The notes: generated by a model from the sequence alone, not told the origin. A stretch of DNA of 32,000 nucleotides from Dubosiella newyorkensis (GCF_001945605.1 NZ_MPKA01000060.1:25131-57130), one strand, 5' to 3'. Counted from the first letter of the stretch, positions 15,746 through 32,000 are shown. Program-made: numbers and translations.

Positions 15746-15759
15746 AAGGAGGAAAATTC

Positions 15760-16579: not shown

Positions 16580-16624
16580 CACTAGAACGGTATACTAATA
16601 TCATTATTTTAGAAGGGGAATACT

Positions 16625-17599
16625 ATGGAAGATCAAAAGAATAAGAATTTGCCGCCTAAAATCGACGCGCAGAAGATGGAAGCTCAGCTTCAAGAGGAGA
16701 AAAAGAAGGAAGAAGCTTTTAATAAGAAGCAAAAGCAGAAGCGTTGGCTTTTGGTTGGCGGGATCATTGGGATCATGGTCGTGGCTGTTGTTTGTTTTGG
16801 TTTGTTCGTTTCGAAAGTGACGTATTCTGTCGCGGAAAGTATTGTCAATAATATTCCGGAGGAAGAGTTTCATGATTCTTCGTATCGTTTATTGAACGCG
16901 CCGGGTGAATATATAGCCAACGAGCAGCTTTCGATTGTGGAGGATCTTGAGGATCAAGACAAGATCGGCTTGATCAAGAAGGGCGAGTCTTTTTGGTGTG
17001 AAGATACGGCGTATGTCGATAGTAAAGAGGAGCTTTGGGGACAGCTCGGCATTGGCTGGGTCCTTTTGCGTGATCAAAATGGAAATTACGCGACGGAAAA
17101 TGTGTTGACGAGTGTGGATTCTACGCCTGGAACGGCTGAGATCTTAAAAGACATACGGGTGTATTCCGATCCTTCGACAAAGTCTACAATTTTAAAATCT
17201 TTAAAAAAAGGCGATCAAGTGGAGATCGTTTCGGAGAAAGAAGATATAAATGGTGTAGAATGGTTTGAGTTAGAGGATGGGTGGATCTTGAAGACGGACA
17301 ACGCGAAACGGATCGAATCAAGTCAAGAAGAGACGAAGGAAGAAAAGGAATCCAAAGAAACGGACGAGATCCCAGAAGATGAAGAGGGTATTCGTTACAA
17401 GGCGAAATACGATATGAAGGTTCGTGAGGAGCCAAGTTTGGAGGCGGAGCGCACTGGAACAGTCAAGTTGGATGAGGTCGTCGAGATCGTGGAGATCGGA
17501 GAAGACGAGGAGGGCGCTACGTGGGGCAAGATCCGAGATGGCGATTATGTCTGTTTGAAGGATAAGGACTATACGTATTTTGAAGAGGTGTCTGAATAG
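16625..17599 (+). CDS. Single-pass membrane protein with three SH3b-like repeats and acidic linkers
   Basis: Lys/Glu-rich N-terminus, then the TM segment WLLVGGIIGIMVVAVVCFGLFV. Three repeats end in LWGQLGIGWVLLRD, VEWFELEDGWILKTD and ATWGKIRDGDYVCLKD. Confidence 0.75.
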   Translation: MEDQKNKNLPPKIDAQKMEAQLQEEKKKEEAFNKKQKQKRWLLVGGIIGIMVVAVVCFGLFVSKVTYSVAESIVNNIPEEEFHDSSYRLLNAPGEYIANEQLSIVEDLEDQDKIGLIKKGESFWCEDTAYVDSKEELWGQLGIGWVLLRDQNGNYATENVLTSVDSTPGTAEILKDIRVYSDPSTKSTILKSLKKGDQVEIVSEKEDINGVEWFELEDGWILKTDNAKRIESSQEETKEEKESKETDEIPEDEEGIRYKAKYDMKVREEPSLEAERTGTVKLDEVVEIVEIGEDEEGATWGKIRDGDYVCLKDKDYTYFEEVSE

Positions 17600-17611
17600 G
17601 CATCTTTTTTT
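17587..17611 (+). terminator. Possible intrinsic terminator overlapping the stop codon of the SH3b gene
   Basis: Stem GGTGTCT / AGGCATC (two G-U pairs), loop GAAT, then T7. Confidence 0.4.
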
Positions 17612-17848: not shown

Positions 17849-18463
17849 ATGAAATTGATTAAATTTGGAAGTGCTGCTTTGGCCGCTACTATGGCTTTCA
17901 GCGCTGCCCCTGTTTTCGCAGCAGACAACAGTCCAATTCAAGGCGATGTTAATAAAAGACCTGGCGTTACTGAAGCGACAGTAGATGGCATTAAAATCGA
18001 AGTGACTGATAGCGCGATCACAGACGAAAAAGTATTAGAAGTTGTTAACGACGAACAAAAAGTTAAAGATATTTTGAAAGAAAACGGTTATAAAGTACCT
18101 ACTGGAGCAACTGTCGTTGTTCTTGGCGAAGGGGACTATAACTACGAAGTAAACGGAAAACCTGAAGAATTGAAAAAAGCCGTTGAAATGTCTTTCGACG
18201 CTGCTACCCTTGCAGCGAAAGATGGAGACCAAGTCTTTGTTCTTCACTTGAAACACGATGGTAAATGGGAAGTAATCTCTGCCGTTGTTGAAAAAGGCAT
18301 CATCAAAGTGACTTTGGATGGTCTTTCTCCAGTTGCGTTCTACAAAGTTGTAGATGAAAAGACTGGTAAAGTCGTTGAAATCACGAAAGAAGAAGCAGCT
18401 AAAGCTGGTGTTAACACAACGACAGCTAAGGTTGAAAAGAAATCTCCTAACACTGGAATCTAA
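17849..18463 (+). CDS. Small secreted protein of unknown function (Sec signal peptide)
   Basis: The N-terminus MKLIKFGSAALAATMAFSAAPVFA|AD looks like a signal peptide with an AxA cleavage site. It has its own promoter, a purine-rich RBS (GAAAGGAAG) and a strong terminator. The C-terminus ends ...KKSPNTGI. Confidence 0.8.
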   Translation: MKLIKFGSAALAATMAFSAAPVFAADNSPIQGDVNKRPGVTEATVDGIKIEVTDSAITDEKVLEVVNDEQKVKDILKENGYKVPTGATVVVLGEGDYNYEVNGKPEELKKAVEMSFDAATLAAKDGDQVFVLHLKHDGKWEVISAVVEKGIIKVTLDGLSPVAFYKVVDEKTGKVVEITKEEAAKAGVNTTTAKVEKKSPNTGI

Positions 18464-18520
18464 TTATTCTAGTTCACAAAATTTAAGCTTAAATTTATGT
18501 ACTCTGTGAATGTCCAAATA

Positions 18521-18552
18521 GTCGATCGATGAGAGTCGGTCGGCTTTTTTTT
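18521..18552 (+). terminator. Rho-independent terminator
   Basis: 9-bp stem GTCGATCGA / TCGGTCGGC (two G-U pairs), loop TGAGAG, then T8. Confidence 0.7.
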
Positions 18553-18574: not shown

Positions 18575-19597
18575 ATGCGTCGTTTTAAAAAGATCATGAT
18601 TGGCGTTCTCATCGTCTTGTTGCTGATCGTATGGGGTGTTGGGGGCACTTATTTTTATTTGAACTATAAGGGTCAAAAACAGCTCAAGGAAAGCGAAGTA
18701 CAGGATCGGGAAGGGACGTATATCACTTATCAAGGGAAAGAGTATCGGTATAATGACGATATGATCAATATCCTTTTTATGGGGATCGATAAAAAGGGTG
18801 GTATTGAAGAAGAGGTCGCGCCTGGTGTTCAAGGTCTGGCGGATTCGATCTTGCTCGTTTCTTTGGATACGACGAATGATAATTTGTTTATGTGGGCGAT
18901 TCCGCGGGATACGATGGCTCAGCTAAGAAGAACGGATGAGGCGGGTAATTTTGCGGAACCTTTTGAAGATAAGATCACGCTTCAATATGGGTATGGAAAT
19001 GGGGCTCAGGAAAGCTGCGAGCTGATGGAGGTGGCTGTTTCCAACTTGTTGTTCAAATTGCCTATTCAGCGTTATGTTTCGATCAATATGGATGCGGTTC
19101 CAATCGTGAATGATGCGGTTGGTGGAGTGAGCTTGACGGCTTTGGAAACGGTCGCCAATTCAAAGGGGATCTATTTTAATGAAGGAGACCAAGTTCATTT
19201 GATGGGTCAAGATGCCTTGAATTATATTCAAATTCGTGATATCAATCAGATTGGAAGCGCAATGGGACGTTTGAATCGTCAAAAACAGTATGTGGATGCT
19301 TTTTATCATCAAGCTTTGCAGGCTGTCAAACAAAACATTGGTCTCCCTGTTACCCTGTATAATGAATTAAAACCATATATGTATACGAATCTAACATTAG
19401 AGGATGTAACATATTTAGGAACGGAGTTTTTACAGACCCACTTTTCTATGGAGAATTTAAAGCAGATTCCTGGAGAAGCGGTTTATGATGAAAACTATCA
19501 TGGGGGAAGGACGGTATTCCGGGTAAATTATGATGAGCTTCAAAAGGAGATCATCGATACGTATTATACGGAAGTGAAAGAGGATAATGAGGAATAA
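18575..19597 (+). CDS. LytR-CpsA-Psr (LCP) family glycopolymer-peptidoglycan ligase
   Basis: N-terminal TM anchor, INILFMGIDKKG, ADSILLVSLD, and WAIPRDT, as in LCP proteins. Confidence 0.85.
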   Translation: MRRFKKIMIGVLIVLLLIVWGVGGTYFYLNYKGQKQLKESEVQDREGTYITYQGKEYRYNDDMINILFMGIDKKGGIEEEVAPGVQGLADSILLVSLDTTNDNLFMWAIPRDTMAQLRRTDEAGNFAEPFEDKITLQYGYGNGAQESCELMEVAVSNLLFKLPIQRYVSINMDAVPIVNDAVGGVSLTALETVANSKGIYFNEGDQVHLMGQDALNYIQIRDINQIGSAMGRLNRQKQYVDAFYHQALQAVKQNIGLPVTLYNELKPYMYTNLTLEDVTYLGTEFLQTHFSMENLKQIPGEAVYDENYHGGRTVFRVNYDELQKEIIDTYYTEVKEDNEE

Positions 19598-19625
19598 GGG
19601 GTTGTATTTTGTACCCCTTTTTTTA
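19596..19625 (+). terminator. Rho-independent terminator after the LCP gene
   Basis: Stem AAGGGGT (19596-19602) / ACCCCTT (19613-19619), 10-nt loop, followed by a T-run. Confidence 0.65.
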
Positions 19626-19758
19626 TTTTCTCATATAGATTTATTCTTATATTTTATAATCATGCTTTTGTTTGAACTTGTCATAGAACATAACAATTTA
19701 GTTGAAATGCTTTTGAATTATGTATTATGGTTAATAAGAAAGAAGAAAGGTATTTATT

Positions 19759-20814
19759 ATGAAGTCAATGGACCGTGAAGTAAATGAATTAGATTTTATA
19801 AATATAGTTTCCACAATAGGGGTTGTGTTTTTACATGTTAATAACTGTTTTTGGTCTTTTTCATCTACAGAAAGATATTGGGCAACAGCTAATGTGATTG
19901 AAAGTGTTTTTTATTTTGCGGTTCCTTTATTTTTTATGTTGTGTGGAGTTACTTTGATTGATTATAGATATAAGTATTCAACAAGAGACTATATTAAAAA
20001 ACGATTTATAAAAGTTTTTATTCCTTATATTTTCTGGAGTATTATCGGTATTATATGGACACATCTTATATTCTCTACAAATCAGGGAGTGTTTAAGATA
20101 TCTTTAAAAGAATTTATAAATTTATTACTTAGTGGTAATGGAATCAGATATTTTTGGTTCTTTATACCTTTGTTTATGATTTACATCTCAATCCCCTTTA
20201 TAGCATTTCTAGAGCAGGATAAAAAACTAACAGTATTTAAGATTTATATCCTTTTTTATATAGTAATGAATGCTGCTCTTCCTTTTTTTAATAATGTGTT
20301 TCAGTTAGGCTTGAATTTGACTCAGTGGAGAATTCCGATTTTAGAAGGTTTTATGGTTTATCCTTTACTTGGATATGTGATCAACAATATTCAACTAACA
20401 AAAAGGTTTAGACATATAATTTATTTTATTGGCTTGTTTTCATTAATATTAATTATTTTTGGGACCTATTATGAATCAATTAAGATCAATGCAATCAATG
20501 AAATTTTCAAAGGTTATTTAAATTTACCATGCATTTTATATTCTTTATCAATGTTTTGCTTTTTAAGAGAAATATTTCCAAAAATTAAGAATAATAAAAT
20601 GGTTTATTTATTTATAAAATGGTTACGTCCATATACATTTAGCATATTTTTAATTCACTTTTTCTTTTTAGATAGTATTGAACGTTTCCTAAGTATTGAC
20701 CAGCGCTCTATTATATATCGATTAATAGGTCCATTTGTAGTGATAATATTATCGGTATGTTTTGCTTATATAATTCGATTGTTTAAATATGGTAAATTTA
20801 TTCTCCCAAAATAA
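19759..20814 (+). CDS. Acyltransferase-3 family membrane protein (putative glycan O-acetyltransferase, OafA/WecH-like)
   Basis: 351 aa with about 10 hydrophobic helices. The N-terminal LDFINIVSTIGVVFLHV segment resembles the Acyl_transf_3 signature. Confidence 0.75.
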   Translation: MKSMDREVNELDFINIVSTIGVVFLHVNNCFWSFSSTERYWATANVIESVFYFAVPLFFMLCGVTLIDYRYKYSTRDYIKKRFIKVFIPYIFWSIIGIIWTHLIFSTNQGVFKISLKEFINLLLSGNGIRYFWFFIPLFMIYISIPFIAFLEQDKKLTVFKIYILFYIVMNAALPFFNNVFQLGLNLTQWRIPILEGFMVYPLLGYVINNIQLTKRFRHIIYFIGLFSLILIIFGTYYESIKINAINEIFKGYLNLPCILYSLSMFCFLREIFPKIKNNKMVYLFIKWLRPYTFSIFLIHFFFLDSIERFLSIDQRSIIYRLIGPFVVIILSVCFAYIIRLFKYGKFILPK

Positions 20815-20936
20815 TTTGATAAAATTTTGGAAATTTAATTATAGAATGGTTTAGATTATTTTAAATAATTTGTTTAGAGTTGTTTTTTTTAATGAAAACG
20901 AAATCTTGTTTTTATATGAATCAAAAGGAGAATTGA

Positions 20937-21713
20937 ATGAAAGTAGTAATTTTAGCTGGTGGATTTGGAACGAGAATTAGTGAAGAGTCGTATTTGAAAC
21001 CCAAACCGATGATTGAAATAGGCGAAAAACCGATTTTATGGCATATTATGAAGTACTTTTCGCATTTTGGTTTTAATGAGTTTATTATTTGTTTAGGATA
21101 TAAAGCTCATAAAGTTAAAGAATTTTTTGATGATTATTATTTGTATACATCCGATATAGAATACGATTTTATTAATGGAGAAAAAAAAGTTCTTTCGAAT
21201 ACGGCTGAACCTTGGAAAGTAACATTAATTGATACTGGTCTTCATACTATGACTGGCGGAAGGTTAAAGAGAGTCAAAGATTATATTGGAGATGAGCCGT
21301 TTATCATGACTTATGGAGATGGTGTGGCAGATGTTGATCTTTTAGATTTGATTGATTTCCATAAAAAAGGGAATCGTTTAGCCACAATAACAGCTGTTCA
21401 ACCTGGAGGTCGTTTTGGGGTGCTTGATTTAGCTAAAGATGGTCAAATCAAACGTTTTCGAGAGAAATCGGTAGAAGATGGTGGATGGATCAATGGTGGT
21501 TTTATGGTTCTAGAACCTCAGGTGCTTGATTATATTGATGGAGATAAAACGACATTTGAAAGAGAACCTTTAGAAACAATTGCTAGCGAAGGGAATCTAG
21601 ATGCTTATAAACATTATGGATTTTGGCAATGTATGGATACGATGAAAGATAAACAGCAATTGGAAGAACTGTTTGAAAAAGGAGAAGCCCCATGGAAAGT
21701 TTGGCAGGATTAA
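20937..21713 (+). CDS. rfbF: Glucose-1-phosphate cytidylyltransferase
   Basis: MKVVILAGGFGTRISEESYLKPKPMIEIGEKPILWHIMKYFSHFGFNEFIICLGYK matches the RfbF/DdhA N-terminus as I remember it. AAAGGAG RBS. Confidence 0.9.
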   Translation: MKVVILAGGFGTRISEESYLKPKPMIEIGEKPILWHIMKYFSHFGFNEFIICLGYKAHKVKEFFDDYYLYTSDIEYDFINGEKKVLSNTAEPWKVTLIDTGLHTMTGGRLKRVKDYIGDEPFIMTYGDGVADVDLLDLIDFHKKGNRLATITAVQPGGRFGVLDLAKDGQIKRFREKSVEDGGWINGGFMVLEPQVLDYIDGDKTTFEREPLETIASEGNLDAYKHYGFWQCMDTMKDKQQLEELFEKGEAPWKVWQD

Positions 21714-22759
21714 AAAATTTTTATAAAGGAAAAAAAGTTCTTTTGACAGGACATACAGGATTCAAAGGATCTTGGTTATGTGCGATCCTTCATTATTTTG
21801 GTGCGCAAGTCGTTGGAGTTTCGTTAAAGCCAAATACTGTTCCTTCTCTTTATGAGGTTGGAAATATAGACTCTCTTGTTTATTCTTATATTTGTGATAT
21901 TCGGAATTTAAAGGAATTACAGGAAATATTTGAAAGAGAACAACCGGAAATCGTTTTTCATTTGGCTGCTCAACCTATAGTGCTTGATTCATATACTGAT
22001 CCTGTCTATACATATGAAACGAATGTGATGGGAACTGTTCATGTTTTGGAGTGTATTCGAAAAACATCAAGTGTGAAATCTTTTGTCAATGTTACGACTG
22101 ATAAAGTCTATCAAAATAAAGAATGGGAATGGGGATATCGTGAAATTGATCGATTGAATGGATATGATCCATATTCGAACAGTAAATCATGTTCTGAATT
22201 AGTTACTGACTCATATACTAAGTCTTTCCTGAATGATTTAGGAATCATTGTTTCGACTGCTCGGGCTGGAAATGTGATTGGCGGAGGTGATTTTGCTAAT
22301 TTCAGAATTATTCCAGATTGTGTGCGGGCCATGGAGGAAGGAAAGGAGATCGAAGTTCGAAATCCAAATTCCACTCGTCCGTATCAACATGTTTTGGAGC
22401 CCTTATTTGCATATTTAATGATTGCGCAATCCCAATATATGGATGCCGATAAAGCGGGAAATTACAATATTGGTCCTGATGAAACGGATTGTATCACAAC
22501 TGGAGAATTGGCAACGATTTTCTGTGAAGAATGGAGAGATGGAGCTAAATGGCATGCGATTGATTATAACGCTCCACATGAAGCAAACTTTTTAAAATTG
22601 GACTGCTCAAAATTAAAAACCACGTTCGGGTGGAAGCCAAGATGGAATGTCAGAGAAGCGGTTCGAAAAACGGTAGAATGGTCTAAGTCGTATTTTGCAG
22701 GTGAAAATGTATTAGACACTATGCAAAAGCAGATTAAAGAATATATGAAGGAGGAATAA
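21692..22759 (+). CDS. rfbG: CDP-glucose 4,6-dehydratase
   Basis: KKVLLTGHTGFKGSWL, a YSNSK (YxxxK) catalytic motif, and a length of 355 aa. AAGGAG lies 7 nt upstream of the ATG. 22-nt overlap with rfbF. Confidence 0.9.
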   Translation: MESLAGLKNFYKGKKVLLTGHTGFKGSWLCAILHYFGAQVVGVSLKPNTVPSLYEVGNIDSLVYSYICDIRNLKELQEIFEREQPEIVFHLAAQPIVLDSYTDPVYTYETNVMGTVHVLECIRKTSSVKSFVNVTTDKVYQNKEWEWGYREIDRLNGYDPYSNSKSCSELVTDSYTKSFLNDLGIIVSTARAGNVIGGGDFANFRIIPDCVRAMEEGKEIEVRNPNSTRPYQHVLEPLFAYLMIAQSQYMDADKAGNYNIGPDETDCITTGELATIFCEEWRDGAKWHAIDYNAPHEANFLKLDCSKLKTTFGWKPRWNVREAVRKTVEWSKSYFAGENVLDTMQKQIKEYMKEE

Positions 22760-22762
22760 TAA

Positions 22763-24106
22763 ATGTTTAAGAATAAAACAGAACAGGAAGCAAGAGCGGA
22801 AATTCTTCAATTGGTTAGTGAGTATTGTGATGCTTTTCATAATCAAAATAAGGAATATCAGGAAGGAGATCGAATTCCTTATGCTTCTCGTGTTTATGAT
22901 CATGATGAAATGGTCAACTTAGTCGATAGTTCCTTAGATTTCTGGTTGACTTCTGGTCGTTATACAGATGAATTCGAAAAGAAACTAGCAGAGTATTTAA
23001 ATGTACGATTCTGTTCATTGGTCAATTCGGGATCAAGCGCAAACTTGCTTGCCTTCATGACGTTGACATCTCCTCTTTTGGGAGAGCGTCGTGTAAAACG
23101 CGGAGATGAAGTAATTACAGTTGCGGCAGGTTTTCCAACGACTGTGACTCCAATGATCCAATATGGAGCGGTGCCAGTTTTTGTTGACGTTACGATTCCT
23201 CAATACAACATTGATGTGACAAAGCTTGAAGAAGCGTTAAGTCCGAAAACAAAAGCGGTTATGATTGCCCATACCCTAGGAAATCCTTTTGATTTAAAGG
23301 CGGTAAAAGAATTCTGTAAAAAGAATAATTTATGGCTAATTGAAGATAACTGTGATGCTTTAGGATCTACTTATACGATCGATGGAGTAACCAAGCAAAC
23401 TGGGACGATTGGCGATATCGGAACATCAAGTTTTTATCCACCACACCATATGACGATGGGTGAAGGTGGAGCTGTTTATACAAACAATCCGGTTTTAAAT
23501 AAAATTGCCCGTTCTTTCCGGGACTGGGGAAGAGATTGCGTTTGTAATCCGGGACAAGATAATATGTGTGAACATCGGTTTGATCGTCAATATGGAGAGC
23601 TTCCATTAGGATATGACCATAAATATGTATATTCCCACTTTGGATATAACTTAAAAGCAACTGATATGCAGGCAGCAATTGGGTGTGCACAGCTTGAAAA
23701 ATTTCCGTCTTTCGTTGAAAAAAGAAAAGAGAATTTTAGAAGAATGCGCTCTCAATTGGAAGGGCTTGAAGAATATTTGATTTTACCTGAAGCGGCTGAG
23801 AATTCTGATCCAAGTTGGTTTGGCTTTTTGATCACATGCAAAGAAGGCGTTGATCGTAATGCGCTCGTTCAATATATCGAAGATCATGGTGTGCAGACAC
23901 GAATGCTTTTTGCAGGAAACTTAACCAAGCATCCTTGCTTTGATGAAATGCGTAAGAATAAAGAAGGATACCGTATTATTGGTGATTTGACAAATACCGA
24001 TCGAATCATGAACGAATCGTTCTGGGTAGGATTGTATCCTGGCATGTCAGAAAAGAAAATCGATTACATGGCGAAAGTAATTAGAAACTATTTTGAAGAA
24101 AACTAA
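22763..24106 (+). CDS. rfbH: CDP-4-keto-6-deoxy-D-glucose 3-dehydrase (E1; DegT/DnrJ/EryC1 fold, PMP and Fe-S dependent)
   Basis: GDEVITVAAGFPTTV. FYPPHHMTMGEGG has His where aminotransferases of this fold carry the Schiff-base Lys. DNCDALG...DCVCNPGQDNMCEHRF reproduces the C-x57-C-x1-C-x7-C [2Fe-2S] pattern of E1. SDPSWFGF is also present. Confidence 0.88.
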   Translation: MFKNKTEQEARAEILQLVSEYCDAFHNQNKEYQEGDRIPYASRVYDHDEMVNLVDSSLDFWLTSGRYTDEFEKKLAEYLNVRFCSLVNSGSSANLLAFMTLTSPLLGERRVKRGDEVITVAAGFPTTVTPMIQYGAVPVFVDVTIPQYNIDVTKLEEALSPKTKAVMIAHTLGNPFDLKAVKEFCKKNNLWLIEDNCDALGSTYTIDGVTKQTGTIGDIGTSSFYPPHHMTMGEGGAVYTNNPVLNKIARSFRDWGRDCVCNPGQDNMCEHRFDRQYGELPLGYDHKYVYSHFGYNLKATDMQAAIGCAQLEKFPSFVEKRKENFRRMRSQLEGLEEYLILPEAAENSDPSWFGFLITCKEGVDRNALVQYIEDHGVQTRMLFAGNLTKHPCFDEMRKNKEGYRIIGDLTNTDRIMNESFWVGLYPGMSEKKIDYMAKVIRNYFEEN

Positions 24107-24142
24107 CTTCAAAATAGTTTTCGTTTTGTAATGAGGAAATTT

Positions 24143-25066
24143 ATGAAGAAACAAAAAGCTATTATTACCGGTGGGACCGGGATGATTGGAATTGCATTGA
24201 TTCGATGTTTATTAACAAACGATATAGATGTAACTGTCATTGTAAATCCAAATTCCAATCGTCAATCCGTTTTAAACCAGTTTAACACGATTAAAATCGT
24301 ACAAAAAGATATAAGTCATTTGAAAGAACTAGGTGATGTCTTACCTCATGATTATACGTACTTCTTCCACTTAGCGTGGATGGGGACATTTGGTGATTCT
24401 AGAAATGACATGTATCTGCAAACAAAAAATATTGAATATACTTTAGATGCAGTTAATTTAGCTAAGGCATTAGGATGTGAAGTGTTTTTAGGGACAGGAT
24501 CTCAAGCTGAATATGGACCGGTAAAGGAAAAAATGAGTGCAGAAACTCCAACCAATCCTGTCACAGGATATGGAATCGCAAAATTATGTGCAAATAGAAT
24601 GAGTCGGATATATGCTCAATCTCTAGGACTTCGCCATATATGGGTTAGAGTATTGAGTGTATTTGGTCCATACGATGGTCAGGGAACAATGGTTATGTCA
24701 GGGTTGAAGAATATGTTAGCCGGGCATGAAGGAAAATATACCAAAGGCGAACAAATGTGGGACTATCTTTATTGTGAGGATGCGGCTCAAGCGCTTTATA
24801 AGGCAGCAAAAAAAGGAAAAGACGGAAAAATCTATCCATTGGGAAGCGGTGAAGTAAAGCCTTTGAAAGAATATATTGAAATCATGAGGGATAATGTAGA
24901 TCCCAATCTTTCATTAGATTTTGGCAGTGTTCCTTATTATCCTAATCAAGTCATGTATATGTGCGCTGATATTGAGGATTTAAAAAAAGATACTGGATTT
25001 GAGCCTGAACATACATTTGATGAAGGCATAAAAAAGACAATTCAATGGATCAAGGAAGGTGATTAA
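24143..25066 (+). CDS. Extended SDR, CDP-paratose/CDP-abequose synthase-like 4-ketoreductase
   Basis: Rossmann motif ITGGTGMIG, catalytic YGIAK (YxxxK), and a C-terminal VMYMCADIEDLKKDTGF segment that recalls RfbS/RfbJ. It sits directly after rfbH. GAGGA lies 5 nt before the ATG at 24143; the track start at 24131 is less likely. The stereochemistry of the product is not decidable from sequence. Confidence 0.7.
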   Translation: MKKQKAIITGGTGMIGIALIRCLLTNDIDVTVIVNPNSNRQSVLNQFNTIKIVQKDISHLKELGDVLPHDYTYFFHLAWMGTFGDSRNDMYLQTKNIEYTLDAVNLAKALGCEVFLGTGSQAEYGPVKEKMSAETPTNPVTGYGIAKLCANRMSRIYAQSLGLRHIWVRVLSVFGPYDGQGTMVMSGLKNMLAGHEGKYTKGEQMWDYLYCEDAAQALYKAAKKGKDGKIYPLGSGEVKPLKEYIEIMRDNVDPNLSLDFGSVPYYPNQVMYMCADIEDLKKDTGFEPEHTFDEGIKKTIQWIKEGD

Positions 25067-25999
25067 ATGAAAAAAATCAGTGTTTTGGTTCCTTGTTATA
25101 ACGAAGAAGAAAATGTCATACCAATGAGTGAGGCGTTGACAGTGTTGTTCAGAGAACAATTGCCTCAATATGATTATGAAGTTGTCTTCATTGACAACTG
25201 TTCGACAGATACAACTCGAGAAAAATTAAAAATGATATGTCGAGGGGATTCAAAAATCAAAGCAATATTAAACGCAAAAAATTTTGGCCAGTTTAATTCA
25301 CCTTATTATGGCATGCTTCAAACGACAGGAGATTGTGTAATTTGTTTATGCTGTGATTTTCAAGATCCTGTTGAACTTATTCCAAAGTTTATAGAAGAAT
25401 GGGAAAAGGGATATAAAATCGTTTGTGGTGTAAAAACACAAAGTGAAGAGAATAAATTCGTTCGCTTTTTAAGAACTTGTTATTATAAAGCAATCAAAAA
25501 AATGTCGGATGTAGAACAAATTGAACATTTTACAGGATTTGGTCTTTATGATCGCTCTTTCATTGAAGTTTTAAGGGATTTAAAAGATCCAACTCCATTT
25601 TTAAGAGGAATCGTTGCAGAATTGGGACCTAAAAGGAAAGATATTCCTTATACCCAAGCAAAACGCCGAGCCGGAAAAACTCATAATAACTGGTATAGTT
25701 TGTATGATGCTGCCATGTTGAGCTTTACATCGTATACAAAGATTGGATTGCGTATCGCTACTATCGGGGGCTTTATTATTTCGATGATCAGCTTTTTGAT
25801 TGCGATCGTTTATCTCATTTTAAAGCTCATTCATTGGAATACATTCCAAGCGGGGATCGCACCGATTCTTTTAGGAATATTCTTCTTTGGATCATTGCAG
25901 CTTTTCTTTATTGGACTGGTTGGAGAATATATCATGAGTATGAACACTCGGATCATGAATCGACCTCTTGTGGTGGAAGAAGAGAGGCTGAACTTTTAA
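25067..25999 (+). CDS. GT2 polyprenyl-phosphate glycosyltransferase (GtrB/CsbB/ArnC/DPM1-like)
   Basis: VLVPCYNEEENV, FIDNCSTD, and CDFQDPVELIP (a DxD-type motif). Two C-terminal TM helices end in GEYIMSMNTRIMNRP, the hallmark of lipid-phosphate sugar synthases. Confidence 0.85.
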   Translation: MKKISVLVPCYNEEENVIPMSEALTVLFREQLPQYDYEVVFIDNCSTDTTREKLKMICRGDSKIKAILNAKNFGQFNSPYYGMLQTTGDCVICLCCDFQDPVELIPKFIEEWEKGYKIVCGVKTQSEENKFVRFLRTCYYKAIKKMSDVEQIEHFTGFGLYDRSFIEVLRDLKDPTPFLRGIVAELGPKRKDIPYTQAKRRAGKTHNNWYSLYDAAMLSFTSYTKIGLRIATIGGFIISMISFLIAIVYLILKLIHWNTFQAGIAPILLGIFFFGSLQLFFIGLVGEYIMSMNTRIMNRPLVVEEERLNF

Positions 26000-26008
26000 G
26001 GAGATGCT

Positions 26009-27700
26009 ATGAAAGAACTAAGGATAAATTATAAATCAATAAGGCTTGGTTCTTTTCTGTATCTGTCTCTTCCTGTTGTGTTATTTTTTATAGGCTTTGT
26101 AAAATGGAACATTGCGCTTCCCGCGATTCTTTTTATTGGATGGATTGTTTTTAAGCTGGGAAGAGAAAAGGAAGACTCTCGATATGTAACGTTTAAAATA
26201 AATACTTTATTGATTGTTATTTTTATTTTTATTCTTTGGGCTTATTTTGGAGGACAAGGTGGATTATTTTATCAAACAAGTGATTGGAATGAACGAAATG
26301 CGATTTTTAGAGATTTGATTCAATTTGATTGGCCTGTTTACTATCCAAAAACAGATACGATGTTGACTTATTATATTGGTCATTGGCTTCCAGCAGCAGG
26401 TATGGGCAAAGTAATCAATATTTTATCTTCTAATCGTGTGCTCGCCTTTCAAATCGGAAATCTATTTCTTGCGTTATGGACTATTATCGGGGTTTTGTTT
26501 ACTTACTTGTTGATGATAATTTATATTCAACCAAAATCAAAAAATTTAAAGTGGATTATTCTAGTCGTCTTTATTGGTTTCAGCGGTATGGATGTAATTG
26601 GATGTATTCTTGAAAAATGGAACTGGCAAACATTTATGGAATGGATGCATTTGGAATGGTGGTCGCCAGGCTATCAATTTAGTTCTAATACTACCGATCT
26701 TTTTTGGGTTTTTAATCAAGCTATACCAGCTTGGGTAGCAACCATGTTATTTTTGAATGAAAAATCTCCAAAACATTATGCATTCATCATTGGTTGTCTT
26801 TTGTTAGCGGCTACTTTTCCGGCAGTTGGCCTTGCGGTTTTGATGATTGGAAAATACATAGGCGATTTAATACGAGTGATTCATTCCAAATCGCAAAAAA
26901 ATTTTTTAATAGAAACTTTATCTGTCTCTAATATTGGATCTGTTCTTCTTTTAGTTCCTACTATCCTTTCTTATTTATTGATGAATAGCGCTATTGGAAA
27001 GACGAAAGAGAATACTTATGTTTTGTCAGACCAGCTACATCTTACTTCAACAATGAAGGGATTGATAATCGTAATGAGTATTGTCGCATTGATTGGATTG
27101 ATCTATATATGGATAAAAAGAAGAGAAGTGCAAAAACAAAAATCTTTAAGATTTATTTTAGGTTCATTAGTTTTGTTATTGCTTTTAATTGGGATGGTCA
27201 TCACACATCCAGAGACTCGAAGAATTTATTTTGTTTTTTTGACTTTAGAATGTGGAATATATTGGCTTTGTTTAGCTCCAGATTTTGCAAACCGTTATTT
27301 ATATTATTTAATCGCAGGAACTTTGTTAGTATTTCCTATGATTCATATAGGAACTTCCATTGATTTTTGTATGCGGGCATCTATTCCAAGTTTAATTATC
27401 TTGACCACTTTATGTGCCAAGAAAATATGTGACTGGATCTATAACGGAAAAAGATTTAATGGAATACAAAATGCAAGTACTATTTTACTCATAGGTTTTC
27501 TTTGTATAGGTAGCATTACACCTATCGTGGAAGTGGGAAGAGGAATTTACAAAGCAACGGAATCGGGGACAACAAGTCTTCAAGCAGATCAAATCAAGTC
27601 ATTAAACAAATATCATGAGACAGGAAGAACCTACTATAACTTTGTGTCTGAAGATTATAAAAATAAGTTTTTTTATAAAAATTATGCAGTGTTGAGGTAG
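26009..27700 (+). CDS. Large polytopic membrane protein, putative GT-C-fold glycosyltransferase or polymerase
   Basis: 563 aa with more than 10 hydrophobic segments. It contains an aromatic and acidic loop, QTSDWNERNAIFRDLIQFDWPVYYPKTD. AAGGAG RBS. I recognise no specific family. Confidence 0.6.
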   Translation: MKELRINYKSIRLGSFLYLSLPVVLFFIGFVKWNIALPAILFIGWIVFKLGREKEDSRYVTFKINTLLIVIFIFILWAYFGGQGGLFYQTSDWNERNAIFRDLIQFDWPVYYPKTDTMLTYYIGHWLPAAGMGKVINILSSNRVLAFQIGNLFLALWTIIGVLFTYLLMIIYIQPKSKNLKWIILVVFIGFSGMDVIGCILEKWNWQTFMEWMHLEWWSPGYQFSSNTTDLFWVFNQAIPAWVATMLFLNEKSPKHYAFIIGCLLLAATFPAVGLAVLMIGKYIGDLIRVIHSKSQKNFLIETLSVSNIGSVLLLVPTILSYLLMNSAIGKTKENTYVLSDQLHLTSTMKGLIIVMSIVALIGLIYIWIKRREVQKQKSLRFILGSLVLLLLLIGMVITHPETRRIYFVFLTLECGIYWLCLAPDFANRYLYYLIAGTLLVFPMIHIGTSIDFCMRASIPSLIILTTLCAKKICDWIYNGKRFNGIQNASTILLIGFLCIGSITPIVEVGRGIYKATESGTTSLQADQIKSLNKYHETGRTYYNFVSEDYKNKFFYKNYAVLR

Positions 27701-27715
27701 AAATGGAAGTGTAAA

Positions 27716-29587
27716 GTGAGGGAAATGATAAAAAAAGTGAATTGGCAAAAGCAGATAAAACAGTTATGGATCATTAATTTATTTTTTCTGATATTTTATA
27801 TGAGTGCTATTTATAGTTCTAGTTGGAAAGTAGTAAGAGCCAATTGGATGATGTTAGAGGGAATTTTAATTATTGGAAGCATAGTTGCTTTATCTTATAA
27901 GCTAGGAAAATTTAAAATAGAAAAGAATTTCGAAATAGAAAAAATTATAAAAAAGAATTGGTTATTCTGCTTAATTTTTTTAGGAAGTATTCTTATTAGA
28001 ATCTCTCAACTTACTGGTGGAATTATTTGGGATGCAGGTGAATATTATGGTCGACTAATTACTGCAACGGAAAAGTTTGACTTTTCGTTAACGGCTTTTT
28101 TGGATAATTTTAATTTAGCAAATCACCCTAATTATGGATATACCTTTTTCACAGGTATTGGAGAGTTTTTATTTCCTAGAAAAGTTTGGGGAGTGAATTT
28201 GGTAGTTTTAATTTTAACAGCATTTGCACTTGTTTTTTTATATAGAATATTTAACAAATATTTAAAACTAAATAAAACGACATCTTCTCTTTTGTGTGGT
28301 TTATTTAGCTTCTCACCATTAGTTCTTGGTACCAGTGGATACTATAATCCAGATTATGGAATTGCTTTATTTTTTATATTTATAATGTATTTTTTTCTCG
28401 AAAAAAAGTATATTTTATTTACATTTTGGAGTATTTGTTTTGTATTTACAAAAGAAGTTTCAGCGATTATATATTTTTTCTTTATTGTAGGCATTCTAAT
28501 GGCGAAATTTCTCGAAAAAAAAGATGAAAAGGTTGGAAATAGTTTTTTTATCATCTTTAAGAATCCAGTTATATATATATCTATCATAGTTGGTTTGTTC
28601 TATCTTGGATATATGAAATATATTGGAGGAATAACTAAATGGAAACAAGTAGAGGGAGCTGGAAGTAATTTTACTTGGAATAACGATGGTTTTAATTGCT
28701 TTGGGTTTAATAGAGAATACGTAATCCTTAAGTTTCAGCAAATGTTTATTGAAAACTATAGATGGATTATTATTATCCTGGCTTTCTTTGGATGTTTACT
28801 GATTCTTCTCTTTAAAAAGAAATTGAATTTATCCGTCAATAAGTATTTACTTTTCAGTATTGTTTTAAGCTTACTTAGTTATATTTGCTTTAATTGTTTA
28901 TATATTACATTTGCTTTAGTTCGTTATAATTATATATCTGATCTCTTAATTATTATAGTTTTAGGAATGATAATTAGTGAAATTTCAAAATTAAAGGCAA
29001 AAAACATTATAAATGGATCGCTGATAATGATTTGCGTTATTTTTTGTATAGAGAGTTTTGTAACGACAGATCCAATTTCTAAGGCTATTTATCCATTTGT
29101 GCCTACGAATTCTATTAGTATGATTTATCCCGGATACTTAGAAAAAGAAATTTATTATGGGGATAATTTAGTTTATAACAACCAATACTCTTTTCTTTCA
29201 AAAAGCTATAATCAATTTTTAAAAAATATAGAATATGATGAAAAGAAGATGGTGGCTTTTCCGGGGAACTTTGATGGTAGTCAGATAAACGGAAATGGCG
29301 AAATATATCAAGTAAACTGGGATAAAAAGAACTCAAGAAGAACGTTTGAGAATCTTTCTGATTCGGTAATTCCGATTAAAACGGAAAATTTGGAATCAAT
29401 TCTTTCTATTAAAAAGAAAAAAGATATGCCAGAAGAAGTAGTAGTTCCTTTTATTCCTTACTTCTATTGGAATTTAGGTAAAAACGAAGTAAAAGAAGAA
29501 ATGAAGAAAAATTATGAATTGATTTTAGAAGGAAAGACAGAAGGGATTCAAGGGAATATAGAATACCAATACTATAAAAAGAAATAG
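27716..29587 (+). CDS. Large polytopic membrane protein with a C-terminal ~180-aa soluble domain, GT-C-like (ArnT/PMT/YfhO-type architecture)
   Basis: 623 aa. An early loop, GGIIWDAGEYYGRLI, carries a D.xE acidic motif where GT-C enzymes have their catalytic Asp/Glu. Multiple TM segments run to about residue 440, followed by a hydrophilic tail. The start is uncertain (GTG 27716 or ATG 27725). Confidence 0.6.
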   Translation: MREMIKKVNWQKQIKQLWIINLFFLIFYMSAIYSSSWKVVRANWMMLEGILIIGSIVALSYKLGKFKIEKNFEIEKIIKKNWLFCLIFLGSILIRISQLTGGIIWDAGEYYGRLITATEKFDFSLTAFLDNFNLANHPNYGYTFFTGIGEFLFPRKVWGVNLVVLILTAFALVFLYRIFNKYLKLNKTTSSLLCGLFSFSPLVLGTSGYYNPDYGIALFFIFIMYFFLEKKYILFTFWSICFVFTKEVSAIIYFFFIVGILMAKFLEKKDEKVGNSFFIIFKNPVIYISIIVGLFYLGYMKYIGGITKWKQVEGAGSNFTWNNDGFNCFGFNREYVILKFQQMFIENYRWIIIILAFFGCLLILLFKKKLNLSVNKYLLFSIVLSLLSYICFNCLYITFALVRYNYISDLLIIIVLGMIISEISKLKAKNIINGSLIMICVIFCIESFVTTDPISKAIYPFVPTNSISMIYPGYLEKEIYYGDNLVYNNQYSFLSKSYNQFLKNIEYDEKKMVAFPGNFDGSQINGNGEIYQVNWDKKNSRRTFENLSDSVIPIKTENLESILSIKKKKDMPEEVVVPFIPYFYWNLGKNEVKEEMKKNYELILEGKTEGIQGNIEYQYYKKK

Positions 29588-29604
29588 AGAAGAGAGAGGT
29601 AAAT

Positions 29605-30831
29605 ATGAACGAGTCAAAAACTTCTAAAAATGTAATCTATAATACCATAGGGACATTCTTTTATTTCTTTTGTCAATGGTTGACAACTATTCTTGTAGTC
29701 CGAATAAGTGGGTATAAAGATGCGGGTATTTTGTCGATTGTGATTTCTTTTACAAATATTTTTTATTTCATAGCTTTATTTGGCGTTCGAAATTTTCAAG
29801 TTACAGATATTAATCATGAGTTTACAGATCGGGATTATTTTGATTCGAGACATATTACATCTGGAATAGCTCTAATTCTTTTTGTGATTTCATTGTTTTG
29901 TATACGATTTAGTCATATAACAGTAATATGTTGTATTTTTTATATGATATTTAAAGTTTTTGAAGGATATACAGATGTGATTTTTGGGATTTGGCAAAAT
30001 CATGATGGATATATTGAAATCTTGGTTTCCTATATTGGAAAAGGAATTTTAACGATTGCTGGTTTCTGTATTGGATTATATTTATTTAATTTGCCAATTG
30101 CGATTGCGATTCAAGCCCTTCTATATTTCTTATTTATTGCATTGTATGACGGGAATCAAATAAAGAAATTAGTAAATGATTTTGAAGTAAAGACAAATCA
30201 ATCTAAAAAGATGCTAATTCCGTGCGTACCTTTAATGATTTATGGATTGATCGTACCTTATTTGAATTTTTTATCTCGATATGTGGTGGAATTAAAATTT
30301 GGAACAGAGATACTCGGTTATTACTCTTCTATCACAATGGTTTTTACCGTGATGAGTACATTAATGGGATCTATTTTTGTAACAGTACTTCCTAAAATCG
30401 CTTATTTATATCAGACAGGAAACTATAAAGAACTGAATAAGTTTATTTTGTTAGCAAACCTAGGAATTGTTGGATTTGGCGTTTTATGTGTAGGGTTAGG
30501 AATCGTATTGGGAAATTTCGTATTTTCTATTTTGTTTGGTAAGCAAATTCTTGATTATATGTATTTGTTAACACCAACAATTATTGCTTCTATAATCTTA
30601 TCTTTAGTTTCTTTGACAAGCTCTATTATGATTTCTTTTCGAAAAAATCATTTAATGCTAATGATAAATATAATTGGTGTTGTATTGTGTACGTTGTTTA
30701 TTTCATTTATAGTTGATTCTTTTAGCTTGGTCGGTGCTTTGTATGCATTGATTTTAAGTCTCGCTATTATATATATTATTTTATTTATAATTATTGAATT
30801 TGAGATCGCTAAAAAGAAAGGATACATCTAG
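29605..30831 (+). CDS. MOP-superfamily polysaccharide flippase (Wzx/RfbX-like)
   Basis: 408 aa with about 12 TM segments. The N-terminus NVIYNTIGTFFYFFCQWLTTILVVRISGYKDAGILS is typical of Polysacc_synt proteins. GAGAGG RBS. Confidence 0.7.
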   Translation: MNESKTSKNVIYNTIGTFFYFFCQWLTTILVVRISGYKDAGILSIVISFTNIFYFIALFGVRNFQVTDINHEFTDRDYFDSRHITSGIALILFVISLFCIRFSHITVICCIFYMIFKVFEGYTDVIFGIWQNHDGYIEILVSYIGKGILTIAGFCIGLYLFNLPIAIAIQALLYFLFIALYDGNQIKKLVNDFEVKTNQSKKMLIPCVPLMIYGLIVPYLNFLSRYVVELKFGTEILGYYSSITMVFTVMSTLMGSIFVTVLPKIAYLYQTGNYKELNKFILLANLGIVGFGVLCVGLGIVLGNFVFSILFGKQILDYMYLLTPTIIASIILSLVSLTSSIMISFRKNHLMLMINIIGVVLCTLFISFIVDSFSLVGALYALILSLAIIYIILFIIIEFEIAKKKGYI

Positions 30832-31880
30832 TGAATTGTTTGAATTTAAGATCTATAGTAAAGAAAGGCGATTTATCTCTTAAAAAAAAGAAAGTTTTTT
30901 TTGGAATATTATTAGCTCTTTTTGTTATTCTTTATAATTTTATATGGATTGATAAAACATTTACAATGTCTGAAGGTTGGGCGCAATTCTATAACGGTTT
31001 ACTTGATCAAGGAAAAATACCATATAGAGATTTTTATTTTCATCTGCCTCCTTTGAATTTATTGAATGATTATATCATATGGAAATTATCTTTTGGATAC
31101 TTTATTATCTATCGAATGTGGAGATTGGCGGAGAGGATTCTAATTGTAGAGATAATGTATTATCTTTTAATTAAAAAAGTGAAACCTAGTATTGCTTTTG
31201 TAGGTTGTTTTATGGGTGCCGTATTTGGGAGTGCTACGGTATTTGATTTAGGAGGAGATTATAACCAACTTCAGCAATTGTTAATCGCTCTAATAGCCTA
31301 TACTCTTATTAAATATATCGAGAATATAAAAATTCCGAAGAAGAAATATGGTTGGTGTATAGCAACAGGAATTATCGGCGGATTAATGTTTTTGACAAAA
31401 CAACCATTAGTTTTAGCAAGTCTTGTTTGTTTTGGTATAATGATGGTTTTCTTATGGATTTTAAAAATTGATAAAAATATTTTCAGAACGATTTTTTTTG
31501 TGGTTTTAGGAGCATCTATACCGTTATGTATAGCAGGAGCATATCTTATTAATAATAATGCAATCCACGATTTTATTTATCAAGTTTTTCAAGATACTGG
31601 CTCTAAGGGATCGCTTTATGAAATTGTATTTGGAAGAATTTTAACGACTATAAAAAATAATATTTTTGGAATATTGAGTTTAATTTTTTGCATTCTTTCC
31701 TATTATATGTATATAAACCAGAATCAAATAAGAAAAAACTATGCATTCATGTTCGGAATTTTAGGAGGAATATTTGGAAGTTATTATATTTGGAATACAG
31801 GAGATGTAGCAAAAAGAGTTATATTGTTTTTTTTGTTAATGACACTTCTTGTTTCTTTTTTAACATTAAATAATATATAG
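30831..31880 (+). CDS. Polytopic membrane protein, GT-C/PMT_2-like first-loop motif; short for the family
   Basis: 349 aa. After the first TM segment comes a loop, FTMSEGWAQFYNGLLDQGKIPYRDFYFHLPPL. This resembles the acidic-residue...PYxDF...PPL loop of PMT_2/GT39-like enzymes. The only start that retains TM1 is non-ATG (GTG 30831, a 1-nt overlap with the flippase stop). Confidence 0.55.
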   Translation: MNCLNLRSIVKKGDLSLKKKKVFFGILLALFVILYNFIWIDKTFTMSEGWAQFYNGLLDQGKIPYRDFYFHLPPLNLLNDYIIWKLSFGYFIIYRMWRLAERILIVEIMYYLLIKKVKPSIAFVGCFMGAVFGSATVFDLGGDYNQLQQLLIALIAYTLIKYIENIKIPKKKYGWCIATGIIGGLMFLTKQPLVLASLVCFGIMMVFLWILKIDKNIFRTIFFVVLGASIPLCIAGAYLINNNAIHDFIYQVFQDTGSKGSLYEIVFGRILTTIKNNIFGILSLIFCILSYYMYINQNQIRKNYAFMFGILGGIFGSYYIWNTGDVAKRVILFFLLMTLLVSFLTLNNI

Positions 31881-32000
31881 ATTATCCTAAATAATCCGCC
31901 TTTGCTCAAATGACTTGTTCAAATCATTTAACACTTAAACAATAAAGCGTTTCAATAATAAAGATAGATAGAAAGAAGTGTATCTCTATGAATCCAGCTT

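Follow-up and report, generated by a model that had tools for sequence, protein, structure and literature searches.

A putative Gtr-type transmembrane glycosylation module with its own CDP-sugar pathway in a cell-wall glycopolymer locus of Dubosiella newyorkensis

Nucleotides 25067-31880 (+ strand) of a 32,000-nucleotide (nt) stretch of the Dubosiella newyorkensis genome (NZ_MPKA01000060.1:25131-57130), hereafter the window, are part of a cell-wall glycopolymer locus of ~50 kb. Five closely packed + strand open reading frames (ORFs) occupy this region, just as an initial annotation made from the sequence alone had described (25067-25999, 26009-27700, 27716/27725-29587, 29605-30831, and 30831-31880). 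They encode a family 2 glycosyltransferase (GT2), two polytopic proteins that we call P563 and P623, a Wzx-like protein of 408 amino acids (aa) that we call Wzx408, and the beginning of a 919-aa polytopic protein, P919. With moderate confidence, we read the region as the membrane half of a Gtr-type multicomponent transmembrane glycosylation system, in which the donor would derive from a branched sugar activated with cytidine diphosphate (CDP) and a Wzx-like protein would stand in for GtrA.

In the proposed mechanism, RfbF, RfbG, and RfbH would produce CDP-4-keto-3,6-dideoxyglucose, and a YerE-like thiamine diphosphate (ThDP) enzyme encoded 6 kb past the window would add an acyl branch at C-4, its keto-acid donor probably being provided by an aldolase and a PfkB kinase. 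A short-chain dehydrogenase/reductase (SDR; 24131-25066) would reduce the branch. The GT2 would then transfer the sugar from CDP-(branched 3,6-dideoxyhexose) to undecaprenyl phosphate (Und-P), and Wzx408 would flip the resulting Und-P-sugar to the outer face, the task that would fall to GtrA in most related cassettes. Finally, P623, the 919-aa protein (inactivated here by an insertion sequence, IS), and probably P563 would each place the sugar on a different site or polymer of a wall glycan that would be made by Leloir glycosyltransferases encoded 3′ and anchored by LytR-CpsA-Psr (LCP) ligases. Whether the point extends to the whole GT2 clade seems to us about evenly balanced. If it does, this clade would be the first polyprenyl-phosphate glycosyltransferase class acting on a CDP donor; it would make an Und-P-linked, acyl-branched 3,6-dideoxyhexose of yersiniose- or erwiniose-like type, which GT-C enzymes of at least two uncharacterized families would place on Gram-positive wall polymers.

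The GT2 and its putative donor pathway

The catalytic domain of the GT2 (25067-25999, +) matches PF00535 at 82.8 bits (gathering score 23.3). Its residues 3-303 align with residues 27-325 of Synechocystis GtrB (5EKE, E 2.6e-41; also 5EKP, E about 1e-41), and the alignment with ArnC is full length (E 4e-29). Two C-terminal transmembrane (TM) helices, at 237-255 and 267-285, are collinear with GtrB, as is the juxtamembrane region, and the top NCBIfam matches are PgfS and ArnC. The genes for P563, P623, Wzx408, and P919 follow directly in the same operon; in the same setting, orthologues have GtrA/GtrII-type partners. Together, these features support a GtrB/ArnC-type polyprenyl-phosphate glycosyltransferase, and the end-to-end alignments with GtrB and ArnC and the two C-terminal helices agree with the GtrB-like GT2 named in the initial annotation.

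The company kept by GT2 orthologues points to the donor. A search taking one genome per species returned 564 relatives, of which the best 80 (68-76% identity, all from other species) were retained with their surroundings; 47 of these loci have at least 7 kb on each side, and flanks were compared by local BLAST. (Labels of the form L016 designate the compared loci.) Most of the 80 come from Lachnospiraceae, Oscillospiraceae, Ruminococcus, and Clostridia metagenome-assembled genomes, along with a few Bacteroidales bins. A ThDP enzyme is encoded near the GT2 orthologue in 64 of the 80 loci (42 of the 47 well-flanked ones), an SDR in 68 (46 of 47), and RfbH in 52 (35 of 47). At least one of rfbF, rfbG, rfbH, and the ThDP gene is found in 72 of the 80 loci and in all 47 well-flanked loci. 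The median gap between GT2 and ThDP genes is 1 kb, and the canonical order is rfbF-rfbG-rfbH-GtrA-ThDP-SDR-GT2, followed by a protein with 8-11 TM segments. The small membrane protein of this canonical cassette is GtrA (PF04138, 61-75 bits), and the polytopic partner in L016 (Ruminococcus sp. CAG:488) belongs to the Glucos_trans_II family (PF14264, 106 bits). In effect, the canonical cassette joins a gtrA-gtrB-gtr(type) set to a sugar pathway of its own. Conservation within these cassettes is uneven: in L006, L008, and L011, identity to the window's locus is 81-84% for the ThDP enzyme and 64-80% for the GT2, as against 39-41% for P563 and 31-39% for Wzx, and across families the GT2 and the ThDP enzyme are the most conserved cassette proteins.

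Two cassettes, L016 and L090, have unrelated flanks, one with an ABC transporter, LacI, PurA, and GuaA, and the other with an LtaS-like protein, YgjP, and homoserine dehydrogenase. Neither has another glycosyltransferase within 10 kb. Thus, the GT2 is the only possible user of a CDP-sugar in these two loci, and such self-contained cassettes, judged by their gene content, provide the strongest available support for a CDP donor. Because the cassette carries its own CDP-sugar/ThDP pathway, the donor is probably CDP-activated, in place of UDP-Glc, UDP-Gal, or UDP-GlcNAc. The initial annotation had offered two options, that a GtrB-type enzyme accepts a CDP-linked sugar or that a MOP flippase moves a monophosphate-linked sugar, and the presence of pathway genes beside the GT2 orthologue in every well-flanked locus favors the first.

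Three genes of the pathway lie 5′ of the GT2 on the + strand and are assigned by strong family matches: RfbF, glucose-1-phosphate cytidylyltransferase (20937-21713; TIGR02623, 397 bits, cut-off 300), RfbG, CDP-glucose 4,6-dehydratase (21692-22759; TIGR02622, 444 bits, cut-off 278), and RfbH (E1), CDP-6-deoxy-4-keto-glucose 3-dehydrase (22763-24106; NF011936, 740 bits, cut-off 423). The SDR gene (24131-25066, +; Pfam Epimerase, 131 bits) abuts that of the GT2. Sequence beyond the window end (L001) was taken from contig JBGNFS010000001.1 of GCA_041448535.1, which matches the window with 0 mismatches over 11,170 nt. Cluster members nearly identical to the window's housekeeping and island proteins likewise all bear the name Dubosiella newyorkensis. 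On the contig, 6-9.5 kb past the window end (L001 14026-17558), lie the genes for the ThDP enzyme, the aldolase, and the PfkB kinase. The ThDP enzyme scores 438 bits against the YerE-like enzyme JanthE (8RPH), its closest solved relative, compared with 232 bits against acetolactate synthase. YerE attaches a pyruvate-derived C2 unit to CDP-4-keto-3,6-dideoxyglucose, the product of RfbF/G/H, which YerF then reduces, and aldolase-clustered relatives of YerE use longer, aldolase-made keto acids to give erwiniose, caryophyllose, and gastriose (PMC9306805). Genes orthologous to the ThDP gene (81-87% identity) sit inside rfbFGH cassettes of other genomes, usually in the order ThDP-SDR-GT2, and in L011, L030, and L086 the neighbors of the ThDP gene include genes for an HMGL-like aldolase and for an orthologue of PfkB (67-69% identity). 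We therefore rejected the notion that the ThDP-aldolase-PfkB genes belong to unrelated central metabolism: the ThDP enzyme is YerE-like, and it and PfkB are embedded in rfb cassettes in these three loci.

Given the YerE-like ThDP enzyme and the position of its orthologues within rfb cassettes, the island probably makes a CDP-activated, 4-C-acyl-branched 3,6-dideoxyhexose and not one of the plain abequose/paratose type; since a branching enzyme belongs to the pathway, the plain dideoxyhexose of the initial annotation is probably not its product. The branch may be longer than C2. The aldolase and kinase suggest a keto-acid donor longer than pyruvate, possibly derived from KDG or KDPG (2-keto-3-deoxygluconate and its 6-phosphate), which would make the product a new branched sugar. 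From its synteny with the ThDP gene, the SDR would be YerF-like and would reduce the acyl branch.

A second type of cassette was seen among the related loci. In it, rfbFGH genes are missing from the 10 kb around the GT2 orthologue, which is ~70% identical; the ThDP enzyme shares 52-56% identity, and the SDR has diverged to 27-32%. The genes further 3′ encode a double-GT2 protein of 728 aa, one more GT2, and a phosphoglycosyltransferase of the Bac_transf type (L046, L059, L061, L065, L070, L072 from Clostridium fessum, L077, L078, L080, L091, and L092). Separately, a GT2 (68-70% identity) with ThDP and SDR genes occurs in bins labeled Bacteroidales, Alistipes, Bacteroides, or Prevotella (L036, L055, L068, L069, and L077), which reflects either cross-phylum transfer or binning contamination.

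Flippase and polytopic partners

Wzx408 (29605-30831, +) matches Polysacc_synt (PF01943) at 26.8 bits (E 4e-6), under the gathering score of 28.2. It shows 10 hydrophobic peaks in a crude TM scan, where ~12 TM segments would be expected of the superfamily, and its cluster mates are named "oligosaccharide flippase family protein." The protein is Wzx/MOP-like, in keeping with the MOP flippase of the initial annotation, though its score falls just short of the Pfam cut-off. Orthologues occur in cassettes L006 and L008. The statement that no GtrA-type flippase is present in the visible island likewise held: a hidden Markov model (HMM) built from the cassette GtrA proteins matches nothing on either strand of the window or in L001, L006, L008, and L011, and it matches 30 of the 80 related loci. 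Wzx408-like proteins occur in 6 loci, GtrA in 30, both in 1 (of the 35 loci with either), and neither in 45. These counts are consistent with Wzx replacing GtrA here, although we rejected mutual exclusivity as a statistical argument because the loci are too few. A MOP flippase for a monophosphate-linked sugar, which the initial annotation considered unusual, has already been proposed more than once: GacK of the MOP superfamily (PMC8035078) and the Wzx flippase WpsG (PMC10821137) have been put forward for Und-P-linked sugars, and a MATE protein for flipping Und-P-ribofuranose in a Citrobacter system (PMC11127046). GtrA-type cassettes are minimal compared with those of Wzx408 type.

Among the polytopic partners, P623 (27716-29587, +; gene callers start at 27725, giving 620 aa) is the clearest. 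It has ~11 TM segments, an inside N-terminus by the positive-inside rule, and a C-terminal, beta-rich soluble domain of ~170 aa that would be extracytoplasmic. The top 17 Foldseek matches of its AlphaFold2 (AF2) model (pLDDT 91) in the PDB are all GT-C, the best being ALG12 (E 2.9e-6, TM-score 0.44/0.54) and the others including ALG9, ArnT, Pmt4, PglB, STT3, AftD, AftB, and EmbA/B. D103, the Asp of the W-D pair in "RWDxGxYY," never varies among 40 sequences and lies after TM3 in the first large outside loop. The predicted fold clearly indicates a GT-C glycosyltransferase, with relatives in more than 850 cluster representatives.

P563 (26009-27700, +) has ~12 TM segments, belongs to no Pfam or NCBIfam family, and has more than 1100 homologues, all unannotated. 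For its AF2 model (pLDDT 92), ALG9 is the top PDB match (probability 1.0); PglB and Pmt4 reach probabilities of 0.54-0.66, the rest being low-probability transporters. Since the ALG9 match reaches only E 6.5e-3 and a TM-score of 0.37, a GT-C assignment is weak, and we regard P563 as a probable GT-C-like transferase. Its acidic residues D92 and D102 are invariant and lie in the first large outside loop. The initial annotation had noticed acidic first-loop motifs in two polytopic proteins, and these residues and D103 of P623 bear it out. Its description of the polytopic partners as GT-C-like applies clearly to P623, extends to the P919 family through PMT_2, and fits P563 weakly. P563 and P623 were considered as paralogues, and this was rejected (hhalign probability 2%).

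The third large polytopic protein of the initial annotation, unlike the first two, is the 5′ fragment of a split gene. The 349-aa ORF that ends at 31880 is identical at 348 of 348 positions to residues 1-348 of a 919-aa D. newyorkensis protein, P0372, then enters the IS for two codons before its stop, and a 584-aa ORF 3′ of the transposase is identical at 571 of 571 positions to residues 349-919; the two ORFs fall in one 90% cluster. Mapping against the intact allele, found in another D. newyorkensis strain (L094 2575-5334), shows that an IS630-family insertion of 1178 bp, the duplicated TA included, interrupts the gene after codon 348. Codons 1-348 thus occupy 30831-31875 (+), and the left end of the insertion occupies 31876-32000 (+) and continues past the window to L001 12222. 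The transposase gene has HTH and DDE_3 domains and is frameshifted. A small stand-alone GT-C, as which the 349-aa ORF was considered, was rejected in favor of this IS-truncated fragment.

The family assignment of P919 as ArnT/PMT_2-like draws on its relatives. The fragment scores 19.3 bits against PF13231 (PMT_2; gathering score 26.1), the full-length P0372 has no Pfam match, and the 349-aa ORF has no match in a phmmer search of PDB sequences. Four P919 homologues carry PF13231 on record, some members of its cluster are named "ArnT family glycosyltransferase," and the P919 and P623 family profiles match with 85.7% probability by hhalign over the TM region holding a conserved K-E/K-Q motif. By its presence or absence, the insertion may turn one glycan decoration off or on from strain to strain. 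Residues ~690-919 of P0372 (L001 ~13250-13938) consist of glycine-rich repeats, and one cluster member is named "GLUG domain-containing protein"; this repeat region may be an extracytoplasmic acceptor-binding module.

Each of the three polytopic families occurs elsewhere in the slot right after the GT2: relatives of P563 in L042, L050, L069, and L088, of P623 in L066, L074, L030, and L011, and of the 919-aa protein in L027. On the simplest reading of this synteny, P563, P623, and P919 would be three alternative transferases for one lipid-linked donor, directed to separate acceptor sites and stacked in Dubosiella.

Alternative mechanisms and the 3′ part of the locus

The locus runs 23 kb past the window and ends at record position 295200, after which come transposases and unrelated genes. 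In 3′ order, the remainder of the split GT-C gene is followed by the 610-aa ThDP enzyme, the KDPG-type aldolase, the PfkB kinase, a DUF4422 protein, a second Wzx (480 aa, Wzx480), a 398-aa protein with 9 TM segments (P398), three soluble GT2s, a second LCP protein (541 aa), a GT4/GT1 enzyme, Glf, and an LtaS-like membrane protein of the sulfatase family (513 aa; L095 10001-11542) that closes the locus. Five Leloir-type glycosyltransferases lie 7-17 kb 3′ of the window. The claim that the GtrB-like GT2 is the sole consumer of a nucleotide sugar is therefore right for the part of the island within the window and wrong for the locus, and the apparent single consumer arose because the window ends inside the locus. 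In the same way, the ratio of one lipid-sugar synthase to three GT-C proteins is partly an effect of the truncated window and the IS-split gene. By comparison, the reported lack of a phosphoglycosyltransferase and of Wzz/CpsCD extends to the locus end: Pfam and NCBIfam scans found no Bac_transf/WecA-type phosphoglycosyltransferase and no Wzz/CpsCD from nt 18575 onward. Inspection of the 3′ sequence, as the initial annotation advised, reveals GT2, GT4, and DUF4422 proteins, a second Wzx, and a Wzy-like protein, and no initiating transferase. It had named conventional glycosyltransferases together with an initiating enzyme as what would overturn its picture, and only half of this pair is present. 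Hallmarks of a Wzx/Wzy pathway are correspondingly divided, with Wzx480, P398, and Leloir glycosyltransferases present and an initiating transferase and Wzz not found in the locus. A family-4 gene at 13469-14449 was considered as a primer for the island and rejected, since it is a genuine MraY (TIGR00445, 315 bits) beside MurD and UppP.

It is useful to weigh this inventory against a scheme resembling the dual-chain assembly of the lactococcal polysaccharide pellicle, which we consider unlikely yet take seriously. Here, the GT2 would be the primer of the locus, comparable to WpsA or GacI, and its Und-P-sugar would be elongated in the cytoplasm by the Leloir enzymes, flipped by Wzx, and polymerized or ligated outside by the GT-C-like proteins and P398. 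A chain primed on Und-P, flipped by Wzx, and ligated by a GT-C enzyme is supported by experiment in Lactococcus (PMC10821137). The locus lacks a phosphoglycosyltransferase, yet it encodes five Leloir glycosyltransferases, two Wzx proteins, and a Wzy-like 9-TM protein. Moreover, additional cytoplasmic modifiers are encoded in every one of the five Wzx-type cassettes examined, as fits a larger lipid-linked unit: a soluble GT2 (GT2b) in L006 and L008, LicD and a GT2 in L032 (9360-15472), LicD and an IspD- or LicC-like cytidylyltransferase with a GT87 polytopic partner in L057 (5653-9702), and polysaccharide pyruvyl transferases in L073 (5639-9027). It is these modifiers, together with the missing phosphoglycosyltransferase, that keep the scheme alive. 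Several features of the locus tell against it, however. The module from GT2 to P919 is without a cytoplasmic glycosyltransferase, and the Leloir genes form a separate block that has its own Wzx480 and LCP protein and lies beyond the ThDP-aldolase-kinase genes. GT2b of L006 and L008 has no orthologue here, and the commonest cassette form, that with GtrA, is a plain monosaccharide system. Finally, primers of wall polymers are commonly encoded elsewhere, TagO and GacO being examples. As to GT2b, the idea that P563 is always paired with it was rejected, since GT2b is found neither in other P563 loci nor in this one.

Far less probable, in our judgment, is that the GT2 is an ordinary UDP-Glc or UDP-GlcNAc:Und-P transferase and that the CDP-sugar is used by the 3′ Leloir enzymes of the GT2 or GT4 type. 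To our knowledge, all characterized enzymes of the GtrB/ArnC/DPMS/GacI type use UDP or GDP donors, and the best NCBIfam matches of this GT2 are PgfS and ArnC. Leloir glycosyltransferases that could use the CDP-sugar do exist 3′, and some of the well-flanked loci lack rfbFGH nearby, as detailed below. Nevertheless, GT2 orthologues co-localize with the pathway throughout the well-flanked loci, usually right after ThDP-SDR, and remain its neighbors in L016 and L090, where no other glycosyltransferase is at hand; the GT2 and the ThDP enzyme are also the two cassette proteins that vary least. The least probable alternative is an arabinan-like one, in which three GT-C enzymes acting in succession on one Und-P-sugar would build a dideoxyhexose oligomer or homopolymer, as three GT-C-like genes per lipid-sugar synthase, Foldseek matches to AftD, AftB, and EmbA/B, and the setting of a distant P563 relative (L010, discussed below) might suggest; against this, the majority of related cassettes make do with one or two polytopic partners, in other genomes a single "type-specific" slot is filled by any one of the families on its own, this strain does without an intact copy of one of the three genes, and a conventional backbone-synthesis block lies 3′.

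The Gtr-type reading with a CDP-branched-sugar donor has difficulties of its own, in addition to the cytoplasmic modifiers of the Wzx-type cassettes. The metal motif of the GT2 is CCDFQDP where GtrB has DADLQDP, so that D-x-Q is kept and the first Asp of DxD is Cys; in a model of WpsA, as in DPMS, this first Asp lies beyond binding distance of the Mg2+ ion (PMC10821137). No E3 reductase (RfbI/DdhD), the enzyme normally paired with RfbH, was recognized in the locus, which leaves a gap in the pathway, and none is obvious in the canonical cassettes as judged by gene order alone, with no domain scan. In 11 of the 47 well-flanked loci, rfbFGH genes are missing from the surrounding 10 kb, although 10 of these 11 retain the ThDP-SDR-GT2 trio (L087 has no SDR match). 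The GT-C call for P563 is weak on the figures given above, and P563 shows no profile similarity to P623. Few loci underlie the near-exclusivity of Wzx and GtrA, and a GtrA gene might lie outside the locus, as those for CflA in Lactococcus and GtcA in Listeria do, the GtrA search having covered the loci only. We observe gene identities, folds, the IS disruption, and conserved synteny; from sequence, predicted fold, and synteny we infer the donor, the flippase, the acceptors, and every enzymatic step.

Known systems, wider meaning, and setting of the island

Of the systems described, the GtrA/GtrB/Gtr(type) machinery for O-antigen glucosylation in Shigella and Salmonella and its Gram-positive counterparts, CsbB/GtcA/YfhO, GtlA/GtlB, and CsdAB-CflA, are the closest. 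The GT2 is collinear with GtrB, a polytopic protein, probably GT-C-like, is encoded directly 3′, and a genuine GtrA (PF04138), in one case with a Glucos_trans_II partner, is found in related cassettes. The present module differs in having its own CDP-sugar/ThDP branching pathway, a Wzx-like protein instead of GtrA, and three GT-C or GT-C-like genes behind one synthase. The GacI/J-GacK-GacL system of Streptococcus pyogenes and the WpsA/B-WpsG-WpsJ system of Lactococcus resemble it in that the primer is encoded outside the cluster; in addition, the position of the LtaS-like gene at the locus end recalls GacH, the glycerol-phosphate transferase of the streptococcal group A carbohydrate cluster in S. 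pyogenes. Unlike the GT2 here, which is TM-anchored and has no GacJ-like gene in view, GacI and WpsA have no TM helices and need a small partner (GacJ or WpsB). Their donor is UDP-GlcNAc, and rhamnan genes such as theirs are not in this locus.

On the side of the sugar, rfbF/G/H, a YerE-like ThDP enzyme, an SDR, and an adjacent aldolase are shared with the pathways of yersiniose, erwiniose, and caryophyllose (YerE/YerF, and ErwE/ErwF with the aldolase ErwI). Those sugars, however, belong to Gram-negative lipopolysaccharides (LPS) and mycobacterial lipooligosaccharides and are thought to be added by Leloir enzymes, whereas here the host is a gut commensal of the Bacillota and transfer would apparently proceed via Und-P and GT-C enzymes. 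Furthermore, a KDPG-type aldolase is found here, with a PfkB kinase as its partner.

A third likeness is to the pentofuranose systems (Citrobacter ORF15/MATE/GT136) and to mycobacterial arabinan assembly dependent on decaprenylphosphoryl arabinose, which also combine a polyprenyl-monophosphate donor, a proposed non-GtrA flippase (MATE), and GT-Cs, sometimes several per donor. Their donor is made from phosphoribosyl pyrophosphate (PRPP) by a UbiA-type synthase and not from a nucleotide sugar by a GT2. The initial annotation had likened the region to arabinan assembly more than to a Wzx/Wzy pathway; the mechanistic class is the same, but Gtr-type systems of Gram-positive walls are closer, and UbiA, Prs, and DprE genes are absent from the locus, occurring only beside the distant P563 relative in L010. 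That relative (33% identity; L010 9001-15509) neighbors an ABC-2 exporter pair, a UbiA-family gene, PRPP synthetase, and a HAD-GtrA fusion. Such a setting resembles the pentofuranose three-component system (PMC11127046) in a Bacillota form and is a further pointer to polyprenyl-phosphate sugar donors.

What appears to be new here is threefold: a CDP-activated, ThDP-branched donor for a GtrB-type enzyme, its wide spread in gut Bacillota, and two unannotated GT-C-like families. None of the papers searched connects GtrA/GtrB systems with CDP-glucose-derived sugars, although the in silico survey of YerE-like gene clusters by Krug et al. (2024) may already include these clusters, approached through the ThDP enzyme. 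If our reading is correct, CDP-sugars would join the donors of GtrB/ArnC/DPMS-type enzymes, the PRPP-based systems using a different enzyme. ThDP-branched 3,6-dideoxyhexoses, so far associated with Gram-negative LPS and mycobacterial lipooligosaccharides, would also decorate the walls of gut Bacillota, including Dubosiella, Allobaculum, Lachnospiraceae, and Oscillospiraceae. With more than 560 relatives of the GT2 clade in representative genomes, mostly gut Clostridia and Erysipelotrichales, this would be an unrecognized, widespread class of surface epitope in gut commensals. Branched 3,6-dideoxyhexoses are strongly antigenic and often serve as phage receptors, and D. newyorkensis is an immunomodulatory mouse commensal; strain-level switching, for example by an IS-split GT-C gene, could change recognition by both host and phage. 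The unannotated P563 and P623 families, for their part, gain a working hypothesis.

All genes of the window are on the + strand. Its first part, nt 1-17600, is housekeeping DNA of ~45% GC (PriA, RsmB, RlmN, PP2C, PknB, RsgA, Rpe, TPK, MraY, MurD, UppP, and an SH3 protein). The island is far poorer in GC, at 25-37% over 19001-32000, with a minimum of 24.6% in the 1-kb block 20001-21000, within the acyltransferase gene. Such a drop would fit horizontal acquisition; on an Allobaculum contig (L006), counterparts of the GT2 and ThDP proteins show ~80% identity. At its 5′ end the island encodes an LCP protein, a predicted glycopolymer-to-peptidoglycan ligase (18575-19597, +; PF03816, 81.8 bits, and an NCBIfam LCP domain), and a membrane acyltransferase of the Acyl_transf_3 family, probably a glycan O-acylase (19759-20814, +; PF01757, 110 bits). 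A terminator scan places a strong terminator-like hairpin at 18520-18545, directly before the LCP gene, and further such hairpins at 16556-16572 and 17582-17609. Because promoter and terminator counts are no higher than in shuffled sequence, these scans serve for orientation only.

Outside the island, a 204-aa ORF with no family match lies just 5′ of it (17849-18463), a DUF4438 protein of unassigned function is encoded at 1905-2756, and a 436-aa membrane protein with five N-terminal TM segments and a weak DUF308 match at 11772-13082. MraY, MurD, and UppP (BacA) are grouped at 13469-16557, just 5′ of the glycan island and apart from the rest of a dcw-type cluster.

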